Virus record (IMG/VR): IMGVR_UViG_3300013005_000022
Span: 54,443-118,442 of that record
DNA from: a virus
Lineage: Duplodnaviria; Heunggongvirae; Uroviricota; Caudoviricetes
Length of the DNA stretch: 64,000 bases
Reading direction: 5' to 3' (one strand)
The notes under the pieces were generated by a model. It was not told the DNA's origin, searched no databases, and saw only the letters and a program-made list of their open reading frames with translations. The position numbers were made by a program, and so were the translations under genes. Positions 332 to 5,050 of the stretch are shown here, one piece after another; position 1 is the first letter of the stretch; every line of letters starts with the position of its first letter.

Positions 332-844
332 ATGTTAGCATATCCTCCTAAACCTACTGCAATTCTTCCACACGAATCCAAGATAGAGAATTACATAATT
401 CAACCTAAATGGCGTGGATGGCGAATTGCAATACATAAAAATCAATCATGGACAAGGACTGGAAATTCTATTCCAGTTCAAACAGATTATCCTGACCAAC
501 CTTATGAATACCAACTAGATGGTGAAATAATCTCGACCGAAAAAGAAGTGGAACATCGAGTTCGTGGTGCAATAAAAAGCGGTAAATATCAAATTCGTAT
601 ATTTGACATATATCTGCCGGAAAGACCTGATGCTACTATTGAGGAACGTCTTCAAGTTCTTAAAGATGATTTTGGAATTGAAGTAGAAACTCATAGTGCC
701 AAGACCGGAAAAGATGTCGAATCTCTTTTTAAAATGTTTACTACTCGTGGTAATGAAGGTTTGGTAATGAAACTTAAAGGATCTAAATATCGAGCATCTC
801 AAAGTGGAAATGAAATTGATAATAATTGGTCAAAAATCCGTTAA
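332..844 (+). CDS. ATP-dependent ligase-like nucleotidyltransferase domain protein (NTase domain only)
   Basis: Ordered covalent-NTase motifs: KWRGWR at the motif I position (KxDGxR with D->R), LDGEII (III), EGLVMK (IV), LKGSKY (V); no OB domain. Confidence 0.55.
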   Translation: MLAYPPKPTAILPHESKIENYIIQPKWRGWRIAIHKNQSWTRTGNSIPVQTDYPDQPYEYQLDGEIISTEKEVEHRVRGAIKSGKYQIRIFDIYLPERPDATIEERLQVLKDDFGIEVETHSAKTGKDVESLFKMFTTRGNEGLVMKLKGSKYRASQSGNEIDNNWSKIR

Positions 845-1256
845 AAATCAAAGTCATCAGATATATAATTAACAAACTTTAAAAAAAATGTTTGTATTCT
901 GTGAAACTGGATAACTTTCCATCATATAATATAAACAATCGTTCTTTTAAATAACACAACTTTAACAAGTGGTAAGCGGTCGAGTTACTTCGTAATTATT
1001 TGGAAAATACAAAACACACTCACCCAACATTCCCTTGATAAGATATTTTGATAGTAGTTATGTGTAGAGTTACATCGTACTTCAACTTCGCAAGAAGCTT
1101 ATACAATTAATTCTATAACTATGAACAGCAGGTGGTTCTTAATTGATCCACCCTACTAGAATTTAAGCTCAGGCTTTAATTCAAACCATCTCTACCCGGG
1201 ATTCTCTATCAAAAATTTTTACAAGGGATTCGCTTTCGAGCGAGTCCCTTTTTTTA
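845..1256 (+). ncRNA. candidate structured non-coding RNA in the 450-nt gap upstream of the Ro60-like gene (Y-RNA-like or tmRNA-like); exact 5' end unknown
   Basis: 450 nt without an ORF in a genome with almost no intergenic space; ends in an intrinsic terminator; internal hairpin GGTGGTTCTTAATTGATCCACC at ~1129-1150; adjacent to Ro60 and SmpB genes. Confidence 0.3.
1225..1256 (+). terminator. intrinsic terminator
   Basis: GGGATTCGC-TTTCGA-GCGAGTCCC stem-loop followed by TTTTTTTAT. Confidence 0.6.
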
Positions 1257-1294
1257 TTGAATTGAAATTGAAATTAATATAAACAAACAAAAAC

Positions 1295-2881
1295 ATGGCA
1301 CGTTACAATCAAAAACAAACAAATGCAGTAGAAACTGTTACTAACCATCAAGGTGGTGTATCAGTAAAACTAGATCCTAAAATGGAATTAGTAAGCATTC
1401 TGGCTAATGGGTTCGATAATACCTATTACGAAAAATTGAGTGATAGAGAAACTCGATTTGCAGACTTGATTCGTGAAATTGCGAAGAAAGATTTGGAATT
1501 CGTTGCGAAAGCTCTTGTGTACACTCGTTCAGTAATTGGTCAAAGATCGGTAACTCACTTTGGATCGGTTGCTTTAGCATCCGAACTTTCTGGAACAGAA
1601 ATCGCAAAGAGATTCTTCTCTAAGCGTGATCGTAAAGAAAATCGAGGTGGAATTGTATATCGTATTGATGATATGCTTGAAATTATGGCTTGTTATCAAG
1701 CACTTAACCCAGGTAAACCAATGCCTAACTCAATGAAAAAAGGTTTCAGAGAAACTCTTGAATCATCTGATGCTTATGAATTAGCTAAATATCAAGGTAA
1801 AGGAAGATCAGTTTCATTGGTTGACTTGGTAAACTTGGTTCACCCAAAACCAAACGAGAAAATGCAACCTATCTTCAAATCATTAATGGAAGGATCTCTT
1901 AAACAATTTAACACGGTTGAAGATAAGAACACTTCATCTGGTCAAGAGGTTGCGAAGAAAGTGAAAGAAGGAACCATCTCTAAAGCCGAAGCTGAAGTTG
2001 AATTAAAAGTTGCTAAGGAATCAAATTACCGTGAACTTATTACGAGTAAGAAAATTGGTTATCTTGCACTTTTAAGAAATGTTCGTAACATCCTTTCAAA
2101 TTCAAGTGATGCTGATTTAATCGATTCTGTTTGTGAAATGCTAACTAGCAAAGATGCAATTCGCAAATCTCTGGTATTTCCTTACCAAATCGATTTAGCA
2201 ATGGAAATGATTATGGAAATTGGTTCTTCTTCAAGACGTAATAGAGTAATCAAAGCTCTTAACGATGCATATGAACTATCAATTCCTAACATGGCTGAAA
2301 TGGGAATGAATGGTAGAACTGCGGTTGTTCTAGATACATCCGGTTCTATGTGCTCATATATTCGTTTATCGAATAAAGCTCAAGGTTCTAAATCAGCAAT
2401 TGATAAAGGTGGTTTAATCGCTGCAACTTTTGCTAAAGGTTTAAGTGCCGATGTTTATGAATTCTCTAATACTTGTAAAAAAGTAAATGTGAATCCTCTA
2501 GATACGGTCAATACCATCAAACAAAGCATTATCCGTCAAGGATCTAATGGTGGAACTGAGTTTAACTCAATCTTCTCAACCCTAGAGAAAAACGGTGCTT
2601 ATGATCGAGTATTCATTATCTCTGATATGCAAGGAAGAGATGATATTATCAATGGTAATCGTTGGGGTTCTTCTAGAAGTACTTATGCAAATTATACTTC
2701 TAAGTTTGGTTCACCTCACGTTTATACAATTGACCTTTGTGGTTATGGAACTACTATGTTTAAACCTAACAACAAAGTTTACCAGTTATTTGGTTATTCA
2801 TCAGAAATGTATGAGCTAGCTAAACGAATGGAAATCGATCCTAAAGCTCTTATCAAAGAGATCGAGGCTATCGTAATCTAA
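1295..2881 (+). CDS. Ro60-like TROVE domain protein with C-terminal vWA domain
   Basis: 528 aa; N-terminus HQGGVSVKLDPKMELVSILANGFDNTYYE matches the Ro60/Rsr N-terminal signature (GG...L...L..G..TYY); C-terminal vWA MIDAS motif VVLDTSGSM; architecture matches the ~530-aa Ro60. Confidence 0.75.
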   Translation: MARYNQKQTNAVETVTNHQGGVSVKLDPKMELVSILANGFDNTYYEKLSDRETRFADLIREIAKKDLEFVAKALVYTRSVIGQRSVTHFGSVALASELSGTEIAKRFFSKRDRKENRGGIVYRIDDMLEIMACYQALNPGKPMPNSMKKGFRETLESSDAYELAKYQGKGRSVSLVDLVNLVHPKPNEKMQPIFKSLMEGSLKQFNTVEDKNTSSGQEVAKKVKEGTISKAEAEVELKVAKESNYRELITSKKIGYLALLRNVRNILSNSSDADLIDSVCEMLTSKDAIRKSLVFPYQIDLAMEMIMEIGSSSRRNRVIKALNDAYELSIPNMAEMGMNGRTAVVLDTSGSMCSYIRLSNKAQGSKSAIDKGGLIAATFAKGLSADVYEFSNTCKKVNVNPLDTVNTIKQSIIRQGSNGGTEFNSIFSTLEKNGAYDRVFIISDMQGRDDIINGNRWGSSRSTYANYTSKFGSPHVYTIDLCGYGTTMFKPNNKVYQLFGYSSEMYELAKRMEIDPKALIKEIEAIVI

Positions 2882-2898
2882 TTTACCAACCTCACAAA

Positions 2899-3459: not shown

Positions 3460-3771
3460 ATGGAAAAACACAATCTTCAATTAACCGATTTAGAAAACAA
3501 AGTATTAGAATCTTTAATTCACGGTCTTTATGCAGAACCCGGATTTTCCGATGTAGATGCAACCGATCTTTCAATCGCAACTAAAATTCCAACTAAATCG
3601 ATTCGAGGTGTACTTTCATCTCTCGTTAAAAAAGGAATCGTTACATTAGAAGAAACCAATTCATATGGTGCTCCTAAACAATACGTTATAATTTATCTCA
3701 ATCCATCACATTGGTATCTTCATCCAGAATGGAAGGTAGAATTTGATTCAGAAAAATACACTCAAATATAA
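3460..3771 (+). CDS. small hypothetical protein, possible winged-helix DNA-binding protein
   Basis: Start reassigned to the ATG directly after the promoter core; the track ORF's extension 'YICNIKLNI' is translated promoter sequence; helix-turn-helix-like segment TDLSIATKIPTKSIRGVLSSLVKKGIV. Confidence 0.5.
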   Translation: MEKHNLQLTDLENKVLESLIHGLYAEPGFSDVDATDLSIATKIPTKSIRGVLSSLVKKGIVTLEETNSYGAPKQYVIIYLNPSHWYLHPEWKVEFDSEKYTQI

Positions 3772-3782
3772 AACAAAAAATT

Positions 3783-4514
3783 ATGCCAAAATTATTTAAA
3801 GTAGGAGGTTGCGTAAGAGATGAATTACTTGGTTTAGAATCGAAAGATATAGACTTTACATTTGTACTCGATAATCTCGATCAAACAGTCGAAGAAGGAT
3901 TTAAACAAATGGAAGATTGGATGATTCAAAGAGGATTCCAAATTTTCTTATCCACTCCAGAAATGTTTACGATCCGAGCTAAATTCCCAAAATCTGATCG
4001 TGGTGGATTGGTTGCCGATTTCGTAATGGCAAGAAAAGAGGTTGGTTACAAACCAGGAACAAGACAACCTATCTTGGTTCTTGGAAATTTAGAGGATGAT
4101 CTTCTCCGAAGAGACTTTACACTAAATGCAATGGCAGTTTCTGAAGATGGAACTATAATCGATTTGTTCGGTGGTAAAGAGGATTTAGATGCTAAAGTTT
4201 TGAGAACTCCTCTTCCGGCATCGCAAACAATGATGGACGATCCTTTAAGATTCTTAAGAGCTTTAAGGTTTTCAATCACTAAGGGTTTTGCAATCCATGT
4301 AGATATTTTCGAAGCTATGGGTCAACCGGCAATTTTAGAAAAACTCGAAAAAGTAGTTTCCGCTGAAAGAATTAGAGAAGAAGTTTTTAAAATGATGAAA
4401 GCAGATACTGTTAAAACTCTTGAGTTATTTAGAGACGTTGAGGATATTCTTCCTGGATTTACTGCTCTTGTATTCAGTAGAGGTCTATGGTTAAAACCAA
4501 CATTCGAATTATAA
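3783..4514 (+). CDS. tRNA nucleotidyltransferase (CCA-adding enzyme) head-domain protein
   Basis: GGCVRDELLG...DID (pol-beta NTase GGxVRD/DxD) and RRDFTLNAMA (conserved RRDFTINA motif of CCA enzymes); only 243 aa. Confidence 0.8.
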   Translation: MPKLFKVGGCVRDELLGLESKDIDFTFVLDNLDQTVEEGFKQMEDWMIQRGFQIFLSTPEMFTIRAKFPKSDRGGLVADFVMARKEVGYKPGTRQPILVLGNLEDDLLRRDFTLNAMAVSEDGTIIDLFGGKEDLDAKVLRTPLPASQTMMDDPLRFLRALRFSITKGFAIHVDIFEAMGQPAILEKLEKVVSAERIREEVFKMMKADTVKTLELFRDVEDILPGFTALVFSRGLWLKPTFEL

Positions 4515-5050
4515 TGACAAAACCTAAACTAATCAGAAAAAATCACGAAGGAAACTATCCGCACTTTGCAAATACGGCTAATACTGATCATGGAAAGGCT
4601 TATGTTATCTTAGGTGAAGAGGCTGCTCAAATGGCATGGAACATCGTTCAAAAAATGAGAAATGAACCATTTCATCGAGCAGCCTTTAATTATACCATTC
4701 GTAAAATTCTAACCATAATTACAACCGAGTTAGAATACGAAGGTTTAACTTATGCCATATCAAAAGGTGCAAAAGCATTAGAGGATTCTCAAGAAGGAAA
4801 GTTATTCTCATATCAAATCATTGCAGAGCATCCTGTACCAATGAAGGTGATTATACAAAAAATACTCGATGAAGCTAATTCACCAAGCGATTGTAAAGAA
4901 ATTCTTCGTCATTGGTCAAGAATTACAATTGTAACTCGCGAAGAAGATGCTCTTCTAAATGCCAAACATCAAACCTGCATGCCAGATGATTGGGATGGAA
5001 TTGATATATGGGCAAGATATAAAAAGACTGGTATTGAAGTTATATCATAA
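4514..5050 (+). CDS. hypothetical protein; possible separated C-terminal partner of the CCA-enzyme head domain
   Basis: ATG overlaps the upstream stop (TAATG); combined length with the upstream ORF approximates a full CCA enzyme, but no motif is recognised. Confidence 0.45.
   Translation: MTKPKLIRKNHEGNYPHFANTANTDHGKAYVILGEEAAQMAWNIVQKMRNEPFHRAAFNYTIRKILTIITTELEYEGLTYAISKGAKALEDSQEGKLFSYQIIAEHPVPMKVIIQKILDEANSPSDCKEILRHWSRITIVTREEDALLNAKHQTCMPDDWDGIDIWARYKKTGIEVIS

Follow-up and report, generated by a model that had tools for sequence, protein, structure and literature searches.

Candidate Y-RNA-like genes beside a Ro60 homologue in a variable accessory island of a large T4-like phage

Introduction

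Beside the Ro60 genes of 254 bacteria and of 22 phages, genes for Y RNAs of the YrlA type were predicted in 2014 (Chen et al., 2014; PMC4201824), in a survey that dropped candidates overlapping tandem tRNA genes. The Ro60 protein of the Thermus phage phiLo was tested biochemically in 2025 and binds two Y-like RNAs encoded upstream of its gene as well as the host polynucleotide phosphorylase (PNPase) (PMC12135203), while CCA-adding enzymes, phosphoesterases and polynucleotide kinases have been reported as repair genes of jumbo phages (PMC7790460, PMC7824862). The present work deals with a Ro60 homologue and its surroundings in a 64-kb stretch of viral DNA (IMG/VR record IMGVR_UViG_3300013005_000022, positions 54,443–118,442), which belongs to a large T4-like phage of a Bacteroidota host. 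The whole stretch is called the window below; coordinates are positions within it, and L-numbers (L001, etc.) denote related loci retrieved for comparison.

The initial annotation of this DNA had grouped five loci into one RNA repair and surveillance module: a ligase-type nucleotidyltransferase (NTase), a non-coding gap of 450 nt, Ro60, SmpB and the head domain of a CCA-adding enzyme. All five were recovered by mapping of the open reading frames (ORFs) and by profile searches. Their description as consecutive is correct for Ro60 and SmpB, which adjoin, but a winged-helix ORF, overlooked at that time, separates SmpB from the tRNA nucleotidyltransferase. The analysis favors a different partition of the locus, to which a probability of roughly 0.7 is given: the gap would encode Y-RNA-like partners of the neighboring Ro60, so that the phage carries a Ro60-RNA particle of its own, with the genes for SmpB and the CCA-type enzyme adjoining and the ligase-like gene standing apart.

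The RNA Family in the Gap Upstream of Ro60

The region 845–1294 contains no ORF of at least 40 amino acids (aa) on either strand and ends in a hairpin with a T-run, in agreement with the first description, and its suspected non-coding nature took a concrete form with the detection of two Y-RNA-like genes in it. The predicted fold of the gap had a z-score of −4.2 and was more stable than every shuffled sequence. A tRNA or transfer-messenger RNA (tmRNA) was considered as its content and rejected: ARAGORN called none, and Rfam at E ≤ 10 on positions 820–1320 produced terminator look-alikes only. A search with the Ro60 protein gave six related viral loci, and reading of their upstream regions revealed a repeated unit, which is present in two copies in the window.

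Each unit of this family consists of a 5′ module (nnAAG-U-RG-UnA, a linker and GAGUUACUUCG), an insert ranging from 5 to ~150 nt in length, an A/C-rich stretch and a 3′ module (ACUC, 8–12 nt, AUU-CYCUUnn). Stem 1 closes the RNA and includes an invariant bulged U, while stem 2 is formed by nnGAGU paired with ACUCnn. The pairing was evaluated in 17 aligned short units, all native and taken from phages outside the window lineage: standard pairs made up 92% of the cells compared to 77% in shuffles, sliding of the 3′ partner by 1–3 columns lowered the pairing to 38–60%, and compensatory changes on both sides occurred in 8 of the 12 pairs. The covariance model R1, obtained from the same alignment, found unit 1 at 962–1041 with 59.2 bits (E 8e-9 for a search of the 64-kb window). 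Over 33 sources it gave 60 matches at E ≤ 0.01, which were 94% paired with compensatory changes in 10 of 12 pairs, in an alignment whose fitting to the model favors pairing. The RNA family is real, and it has the broad features of Y RNAs, i.e., a closing helix with a conserved bulged U, covariation and a variable internal part.

Unit 1 is of the short type. Its stem 1 is CAAG(U)GG / CC-CUUG with U970 bulged and its stem 2 is GGU(C)GAGU / ACUC-ACC; a near-invariant UACUUCG and a variable loop of 23 nt lie between the stems. In the long unit 2, stem 1 is UUUUGAUAG(U)AG / CU-CUAUCAAAA and stem 2 is GUAGAG / CUCUAC, with an insert of ~110 nt which folds as three hairpins without a canonical tRNA-like domain. 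Both stems of unit 2 were recovered de novo by RNAalifold from four orthologous terminal units (window, L001, L004 and L011) with three compensatory pairs, and the minimum-free-energy fold of the single sequence also includes stem 1 with the bulged U (z = −3.5). One hairpin of the insert (1128–1149, GGTGG...CCACC) was tried as a T arm and discarded: two of its pairs are broken in L001, its loop has 12 nt and it has no exact match in IMG/VR.

The comparison with L001 showed a sharply uneven conservation. The four modules of both units are identical in 113 of 116 positions (57 of 59 in unit 2) and both stems of unit 1 are 100% conserved, in contrast to only 39% identity and a 12-nt deletion in the loop of unit 1 and to 67–82% identity at the third codon positions of the flanking genes, indicating selection on the modules specifically. 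To judge from this pattern, purifying selection is acting on the RNA modules. The terminator hairpin after unit 2 (1223–1250, 12 pairs, with the T-run reaching 1257) differs in L001 by two substitutions, both neutral for pairing (C-G to U-G and U-G to U-A), and a hairpin with a T-run likewise follows the last unit in L004, L005 and L006. The leader preceding unit 1 (845–961) is 91% identical to L001 against the same 67–82% of the flanking codons, and no homologue of it was seen in more distant loci; its hairpin at ~889–937 is present in the minimum-free-energy fold. It probably holds a putative promoter. The sigma-70-like hexamers at 841–869 and 901–930 are no commoner than expected by chance.

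The short distance of 38 nt between the T-run and the start codon of Ro60, without a convincing promoter between them, would also be expected if the whole 450 nt acted in cis as a leader of the Ro60 mRNA, an attenuator controlling read-through with perhaps some autoregulation by Ro60, instead of encoding stand-alone RNAs. The order array–terminator–Ro60 is kept in L004 and L006 and an HNH ORF intervenes between terminator and Ro60 in L005. We consider such a purely regulatory role very unlikely, since the units also occur in arrays of 4–6 copies at kilobase distances from Ro60 or downstream of it, and since co-transcription with rsr is also a feature of the known Y RNAs, whose action is in trans (PMC4201824). 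The interpretations are mutually compatible.

Linkage to Ro60 and Relation to YrlA RNAs

The association with Ro60 was evaluated by an IMG/VR scan with the 5′ motif of the RNA alone, which returned 31 viral stretches. Ro60 was present together with the RNA in 20 of these loci, a count that includes the window and duplicates and corresponds to 16 independent contigs. Every unit in them lies on the Ro60 strand, the units are upstream of Ro60 in 17 of the 20 loci, often within a few hundred bases, and the Ro60 proteins are 28–91% identical to that of the window. In the window itself the units are located 81–329 nt upstream of the Ro60 start on the same strand, inside the limit of ≤4 kb used for YrlA. 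The closest loci (L001–L003) have a near-identical gene order and a 91% identical Ro60, while in L004–L006 Ro60 is 62–69% identical and stands at the end of arrays of 12–24 tRNA genes. Further afield, R1 matched with 53 bits in LR745206, a phage of 634 kb, at 390 nt upstream of Ro60. In csAssE-Sib, which is crAss-like, it matched around an annotated tRNA-Lys and tRNA-Tyr just upstream of Ro60; it found nothing in the Vibrio or Thermus (phiLo) phage loci.

The same motif scan on 185,579 genomes produced 46 matches in bacterial genomes, most of them by chance. Three are real (L060, L069 and L061): two come from phage-like contigs of metagenome-assembled genomes with Ro60 downstream of the units, and the third from the chromosome of the cultured Chitinophaga dinghuensis DSM 29821, where two TROVE genes are present and an array of four or more related RNAs (nnAG-U-GCCGUAGUAAUGAGUUACUUCG ... 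UUGCCUUnn) lies directly downstream of rsr (L061:2400-3342, minus strand). The Rfam model of YrlA (RF02553) matched the RNAs of this array with E 5e-10 to 0.075 and 22–50 bits. The gathering score is 69, hence these YrlA-like RNAs would be overlooked by routine annotation. Long phage units matched the same model with E 4e-5 to 8e-3 (31–39 bits) and have the YrlA layout of a T arm, an acceptor-like stem closed by a loop and a D arm; no phage unit reached the gathering score. The family consensus AAGURGUAA-N-GAGUUACUUCG stands in place of the GNCGAAN0-1G motif of YrlA. Unit 1 has GUCGAG, one mismatch from that motif and unique to the window lineage, and the Chitinophaga relatives have GCCGUAG. 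By architecture, linkage and this chain of homology the window units appear Y-RNA-like, without being members of YrlA. The 5′ strand presumably resembles that of human Y1 (GUAGUGAGUUAUC), a likeness which no model supports and which is not used as evidence here.

The tRNA arrays offer another explanation of the same linkage. Most members of the family are located inside or at the end of such arrays, 11 of the 56 distinct units enclose a tRNA that ARAGORN can call in normal order, 26 carry a GGTTCRANTCC T-loop, the units of the crAss-like phage coincide with its annotated tRNAs, and several unit-bearing stretches have no Ro60 in the stored DNA. The two-stem units might then be scaffolds for processing or packaging of phage tRNA arrays, e.g., leader-trailer helices guiding RNase cleavage or stabilizing precursors, not ligands of Ro60, and the nearness to Ro60 would follow only from Ro60 itself being cargo of tRNA regions. 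This is unlikely in view of the window and L001–L003, which are free of tRNA genes and yet keep two units under purifying selection, 38 nt or more from Ro60. Moreover, all units share the strand of Ro60 wherever both are present and most arrays end just before it, the Chitinophaga chromosome has related RNAs matching YrlA beside rsr without any tRNA array, and 24 of the 56 units contain nothing tRNA-like that could be processed.

Units enclosing a tRNA include L005:4716-4852, L009:4723-4857, L012:1705-1839, L004:4453-4577, L024:1485-1619 and L108:3788-3911. The enclosed tRNA is tRNA-Gln(UUG) in three phages, and one enclosed tRNA has the anticodon UCA, which reads UGA. Two long units of L004 (4857–5003 and 714–873) resemble circularly permuted tRNA genes with an encoded discriminator and CCA, in the order T arm, 3′ acceptor strand, N-CCA, short spacer, 5′ acceptor strand and D arm, as in permuted tmRNA genes. 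In L027, a GOLLD RNA (RF02032, 288 bits, E 2.5e-81; 3190–3605, minus strand) is located within the unit array upstream of Ro60, adjoining the unit at 3026–3105.

The identification of the protein as Ro60 was confirmed. Its TROVE domain matched Pfam with E 2e-15 (57 bits against a cut-off of 23), the vWA match was weak, with the DTSGS motif of MIDAS, the metal-ion-dependent adhesion site, at residue 347, and PHROG 850 covered residues 8–520 (E 2e-33). The best solved structure was the Ro60 of the Thermus phage phiLo, matched over the full length (residues 13–517, E 6e-21). The score against the NCBIfam Rsr equivalog was 33, far below the cut-off of 900, which makes the window Ro60 a distant member. 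A Ro60 homologue was found in 91 phage records of INPHARED.

Accessory Island Between Two Replication Genes

The features of the locus are listed in Table 1. Three contigs with a 70–78% identical ligase show the order clamp loader, small ORFs, ligase, 5′-3′ exonuclease and Fapy glycosylase, with no Ro60, SmpB, CCA enzyme or anything RNA-related between ligase and exonuclease. In two of them (L038 and L039) the DNA of this gap was read: its ~450 nt hold a terminator and one small unrelated ORF, followed by a PF02739 gene to which the window exonuclease is 63–67% identical. Since these relatives have the ligase directly beside the exonuclease, the region 845–6636 of the window is a variable accessory island of 5.8 kb inserted between two replication genes.

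Table 1. Annotated features of the window with coordinates and supporting evidence
Feature	Coordinates	Strand	Remarks
Ligase-type adenylation (NTase) domain	332–844	+	170 aa; Pfam PF01068, PHROG 114; left island border
Leader before the RNA genes	845–961	+	Conserved vs. L001; hairpin predicted at ~889–937
Y-RNA-like unit 1, short type	966–1037	+	Model R1, 59.2 bits
Y-RNA-like unit 2, long type	1046–1214	+	RNAalifold, four orthologous units
Intrinsic terminator	1223–1257	+	12-bp stem, UUCG loop, T-run
Ro60/Rsr homologue (TROVE ring + vWA, MIDAS DTSGS)	1295–2881	+	Pfam, PHROG, solved-structure match
SmpB	2933–3373	+	Pfam and both NCBIfam equivalogs
AT-rich intergenic element, TAnnTTTG motif (TATATTTG), promoter-like	3374–3459	+	
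Small winged-helix protein (TrmB/DnaD_N-like)	3460–3771	+	Pfam TrmB, PHROG 18303
Short class II tRNA nucleotidyltransferase	3783–4514	+	243 aa; PF01743, PHROG 24229
Further island cargo: 187-aa ORF, HNH-like, NT5C, two small ORFs	4487–6606	+	
HNH-like ORF	5072–5536	+	
NT5C deoxyribonucleotidase (deoxyribonucleoside monophosphate nucleotidase)	5529–6002	+	
5′-3′ exonuclease (FEN-like)	6637–7905	+	Right island border
Fapy glycosylase	8103–8921		
Metallophosphoesterase	52748–53392	+	Pfam; ~50 kb from island
AAA_33 P-loop kinase	53405–53812	+	Pfam; adjoins the metallophosphoesterase

The ligase-like protein had been counted as a part of the RNA module, a claim that failed on both its fold and its neighbors. 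It matched Pfam DNA_ligase_A_M (PF01068, E 4e-8, above the cut-off) and PHROG 114 (ATP-dependent DNA ligase, E 7e-14), its AlphaFold2 model (mean confidence score pLDDT 83) had ATP-dependent DNA ligases as all of the top 50 Foldseek matches, and its neighbors in the three related contigs form a replication block. Motifs I (KWRGWR, compared to KxDGxR), III, IIIa, IV and V do not vary among 13 homologues of 170–171 aa, and all but one of ~20 homologues have 170–172 aa or are shorter fragments; the window protein ends at motif V and has no OB-fold domain. The identity as an RNA ligase (Rnl1, Rnl2, Rnl3 or RtcB) was rejected by fold, Pfam assignment and synteny; one weak match in sequence, to Pyrococcus PAB1020 (E 0.16), was the only hint in that direction. 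A tblastn search of the ligase against the phage collection gave no match. The gene is a replication-module gene for a stand-alone domain of the DNA-ligase type, and it stands beside the RNA genes because the cargo island has been inserted next to it.

Protein Genes of the Island and Related Loci

SmpB was assigned with confidence (Pfam E 4e-48), scoring above both NCBIfam equivalog cut-offs (PRK05422, 165.8 bits vs. 130; TIGR00086, 154.2 vs. 119). Its true start is likely the ATG at 2942, since the L001 ORF begins at the equivalent ATG. The gene is rare in phages and was found mainly in megaphages or very large phages of Bacteroidota hosts. A conserved five-gene module, as first proposed, was not recovered: the adjacency of Ro60 and SmpB is found only in the window and the L001–L003 lineage, and other Ro60 phages have tRNA arrays in place of the SmpB neighborhood.

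The element 3374–3459, which precedes the winged-helix ORF, shares 77% identity with intergenic DNA just before a coding sequence in the Chryseobacterium phage MA9V-1, where two places resemble it, and it may represent a shared type of phage promoter. Its TAnnTTTG motif is read against the −7 promoter consensus of Bacteroidota. The winged-helix ORF matched Pfam TrmB (E 1e-5, just under the cut-off) and PHROG 18303 (E 2e-10) and is 74% identical in L001.

The nucleotidyltransferase had been described as the head domain of a CCA-adding enzyme. The head is present (PolyA_pol, PF01743, E 1.5e-20), but part of the neck is included as well. Motifs GGCVRD (residue 8), DID (22) and DDLLRRD (104–110) were recognized. 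The body and tail domains are lacking, with 243 aa compared to ~390–450 aa of full-length enzymes, and solved structures were matched with residues 3–226 only, onto the first ~200–290 residues of enzymes of 390–580 aa. The protein belongs to a phage family of short tRNA nucleotidyltransferases with a profile of 245 positions (PHROG 24229, E 1e-60). It scored below all NCBIfam equivalog cut-offs and the CCA-adding, A-adding and PcnB matches had similar scores, so that it is best described as a class II enzyme of the CCA-adding, A-adding or poly(A) polymerase type.

The metallophosphoesterase and the P-loop kinase of the initial annotation were both supported by Pfam matches and are possibly end-healing enzymes. 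The phosphoesterase is 54% identical to its orthologue in L005 and 42% to that in L006. The region 38283–39540 holds a PhoH-like ATPase (38283–39029) and, directly after it, another metallophosphoesterase, a distant paralogue with 27% identity to the enzyme of L005.

This gene content is compatible with the view that a hypervariable insertion hotspot holds Ro60 plus Y RNAs, SmpB and the CCA enzyme as cargo genes independent of each other, without a cooperating pathway or counter-defense system. We regard this as a real possibility, though below even odds. The site is empty in relatives whose flanking genes are 62–78% identical to those of the window; even L001 has an island different from that of the window, missing the 187-aa ORF, NT5C and two small ORFs; and an HNH-like gene and a nucleotidase are part of the cargo. 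Among 17 other viral loci with SmpB no clear Ro60 was found within 7 kb (one weak partial match of 25% identity) and no tmRNA, and in LR745206 Ro60 and SmpB are 90 kb apart. Neither a tmRNA was found in the window nor an RNA ligase (RtcB or Rnl, by Pfam), the scan for the latter covering 22 of the window's 29 ORFs with ≥230 aa. Against this, the same classes of genes recur in related tRNA regions. L005 has the order tRNAs with units, Ro60, unknown ORF, phosphoesterase, unknown ORF and CCA enzyme; in L090 SmpB is located within a tRNA array alongside one family unit; in L098 a CCA enzyme of 65% identity lies 3.3 kb from SmpB; and the tRNA array of L006, whose Ro60 is 62% identical, includes a permuted tmRNA (1062–1220, RF04321, 64 bits, above the gathering score). 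The recurrence indicates a shared theme of tRNA and translation support.

Related phages thus have the RNA family, Ro60, CCA enzyme, phosphoesterase, tmRNA and SmpB scattered through tRNA-gene arrays, while in the 64-kb window no tRNA or tmRNA was called by ARAGORN and no Rfam match reached the gathering score; relaxing Rfam to E ≤ 1 on the whole window added nothing relevant. The island is best read as a version of a tRNA and translation-support region that is devoid of tRNA genes, and not as a fixed repair operon.

Proposed Function of the Ro60-RNA Pair

The proposed mechanism follows the Rsr-Y RNA systems of Deinococcus, Salmonella, Mycobacterium and the Thermus phage phiLo (PMC4201824, PMC12135203). 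The first transcription unit of the island would comprise the two tandem Y-RNA-like RNAs and end at the terminator, with Ro60, SmpB, the winged-helix protein and the nucleotidyltransferase following on the same strand. Ro60 would be expressed probably by read-through of the terminator, with the RNAs far exceeding the protein. By analogy, the closing helix (at least three pairs, the bulged U and two pairs) together with the adjacent conserved strand would serve as the docking site for Ro60, and the RNA might gate the Ro60 ring and tether a host exoribonuclease such as PNPase, whereby the phage could steer how structured RNA is degraded or quality-controlled in the course of infection. For SmpB, support of ribosome rescue would be expected, together with a tmRNA of the host or one encoded elsewhere, and the nucleotidyltransferase would restore or build tRNA 3′ ends. 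The latter two proteins probably do what their families do, and with Ro60 they share a recurrent home in phage tRNA regions. The counter-defense role suggested initially is a plausible hypothesis which has already been published in a general form for jumbo phages (PMC7824862).

Several observations weigh against Ro60-bound Y-like RNAs in the window. The contact of Ro60 with these RNAs is inferred from linkage and architecture. The window units are without the GNCGAAN0-1G motif, the presumed contact with Rsr, and without a tRNA-like domain recognizable by ARAGORN or Rfam, and the Rfam models of YrlA and metazoan Y_RNA did not match them even at E ≤ 10. The 5′ half of unit 2 scored only 19 bits with R1 (E 0.44), statistically weak when taken alone, which is explained by the model pairing this half with a nearer false partner. 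Elsewhere, some units are embedded well inside tRNA arrays at a great distance from any Ro60 of the stored stretch, and the units enclosing complete tRNAs suggest that the scaffold may serve tRNA processing. With respect to the neighbors, SmpB, Ro60 and the CCA enzyme are located together in a single lineage only, and SmpB has no tmRNA partner in the window (ARAGORN; Rfam at gathering score or E ≤ 1).

A related possibility, distinctly unlikely at present, would keep the Ro60-RNA particle and change its purpose. SmpB normally binds the tRNA-like domain of tmRNA, which itself is without an anticodon arm. The two-stem scaffold could be a portable Ro60 handle on varied cargo, from nothing to permuted tRNA-like domains with CCA and to tRNAs such as tRNA-Gln(UUG). 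Ro60 would then be a chaperone, shield or delivery ring, SmpB and the miniature CCA enzyme would act on the tRNA-like Y RNAs, and the whole, coupled to Ro60, would be a system for tRNA or ribosome rescue instead of a machine for degradation.

Significance and Other Features of the Window

The combination of a phage Ro60 with Y RNAs next to it has been described before. New are a covariation-supported RNA sequence family of Bacteroidota phages that is not captured by Rfam, its tandem arrays inside tRNA islands, and the juxtaposition of Ro60 and SmpB in the window lineage. An RNA partner of a phage Ro60 has been shown experimentally only for phiLo and predicted for ~22 phages; the family provides candidates in more, including crAss-like and very large phages, where such partners can now be annotated and tested. 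Its position within tRNA arrays, at times around real tRNAs, suggests that phage Ro60 is nearer to tRNA biology than the PNPase-tethering picture implies. The locus is also a warning about adjacency: neighboring genes were a poor guide to a "module," the ligase being a replication gene and the rest cargo of a hotspot.

Outside the island, a 640-aa protein (43222–45144) combines a cohesin domain with a Por_Secre_tail domain (type IX secretion C-terminal sorting), which points to a Bacteroidota host. Two sugar-nucleotide/glycosyltransferase clusters (21083–24442 and 59549–63210) include NDP-hexose 2,3-dehydratase, GFO/IDH oxidoreductase, DegT aminotransferases, fucosyltransferase-like enzymes of families 10 and 11 and an epimerase; they are unusual cargo for a phage and may serve glycosylation of DNA or virions.

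Comparison with Known Systems

Very large phages, such as the Lak megaphages and other huge phages, reportedly carry genes for SmpB and tmRNA. In the window, SmpB stands directly after Ro60 and no tmRNA was found within the 64 kb.

The bacterial and mycobacteriophage systems of Rsr with YrlA/YrlB (RF02553) are similar to the window locus and its relatives in having RNAs encoded on the strand of Ro60 at ≤4 kb from it, frequently two or more per locus, whose 5′ and 3′ ends close a bulged helix. The long units of related phages share with them the permuted tRNA-like middle part (T arm, acceptor-like stem, D arm), and the Chitinophaga rsr locus bridges the two sequence types. In contrast, GNCGAAN0-1G is replaced by GG-UAAG...GAGUUACUUCG, a tRNA-like domain is missing from unit 1 of the window and a different insert of 110 nt is present in unit 2, while in the relatives arrays of 4–6 units are interleaved with true tRNA genes, some of the units enclosing a tRNA in normal order.

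Thermus phage phiLo (PMC12135203; PDB 9KOP, 9L5Y) likewise combines a phage Ro60 with two Y-like RNAs, Yrl1 and Yrl2, directly upstream. Its RNAs are defined by a CGAA motif that is not present in the window units, R1 misses its locus, its host belongs to another phylum, and neither SmpB nor a CCA enzyme stands beside its Ro60. With the rsr-yrlBA-rtcBA operon of Salmonella and the RNA repair sets of jumbo phages (PMC7790460, PMC7824862), the window shares the linkage of Ro60 and Y RNA to enzymes for damaged RNA. It differs from them in that no RtcB, RtcA or Rnl was found beside its Ro60 or among the large ORFs checked and its sole ligase-like protein is of the DNA-ligase type, while SmpB, which follows Ro60 here, is not part of the described sets.

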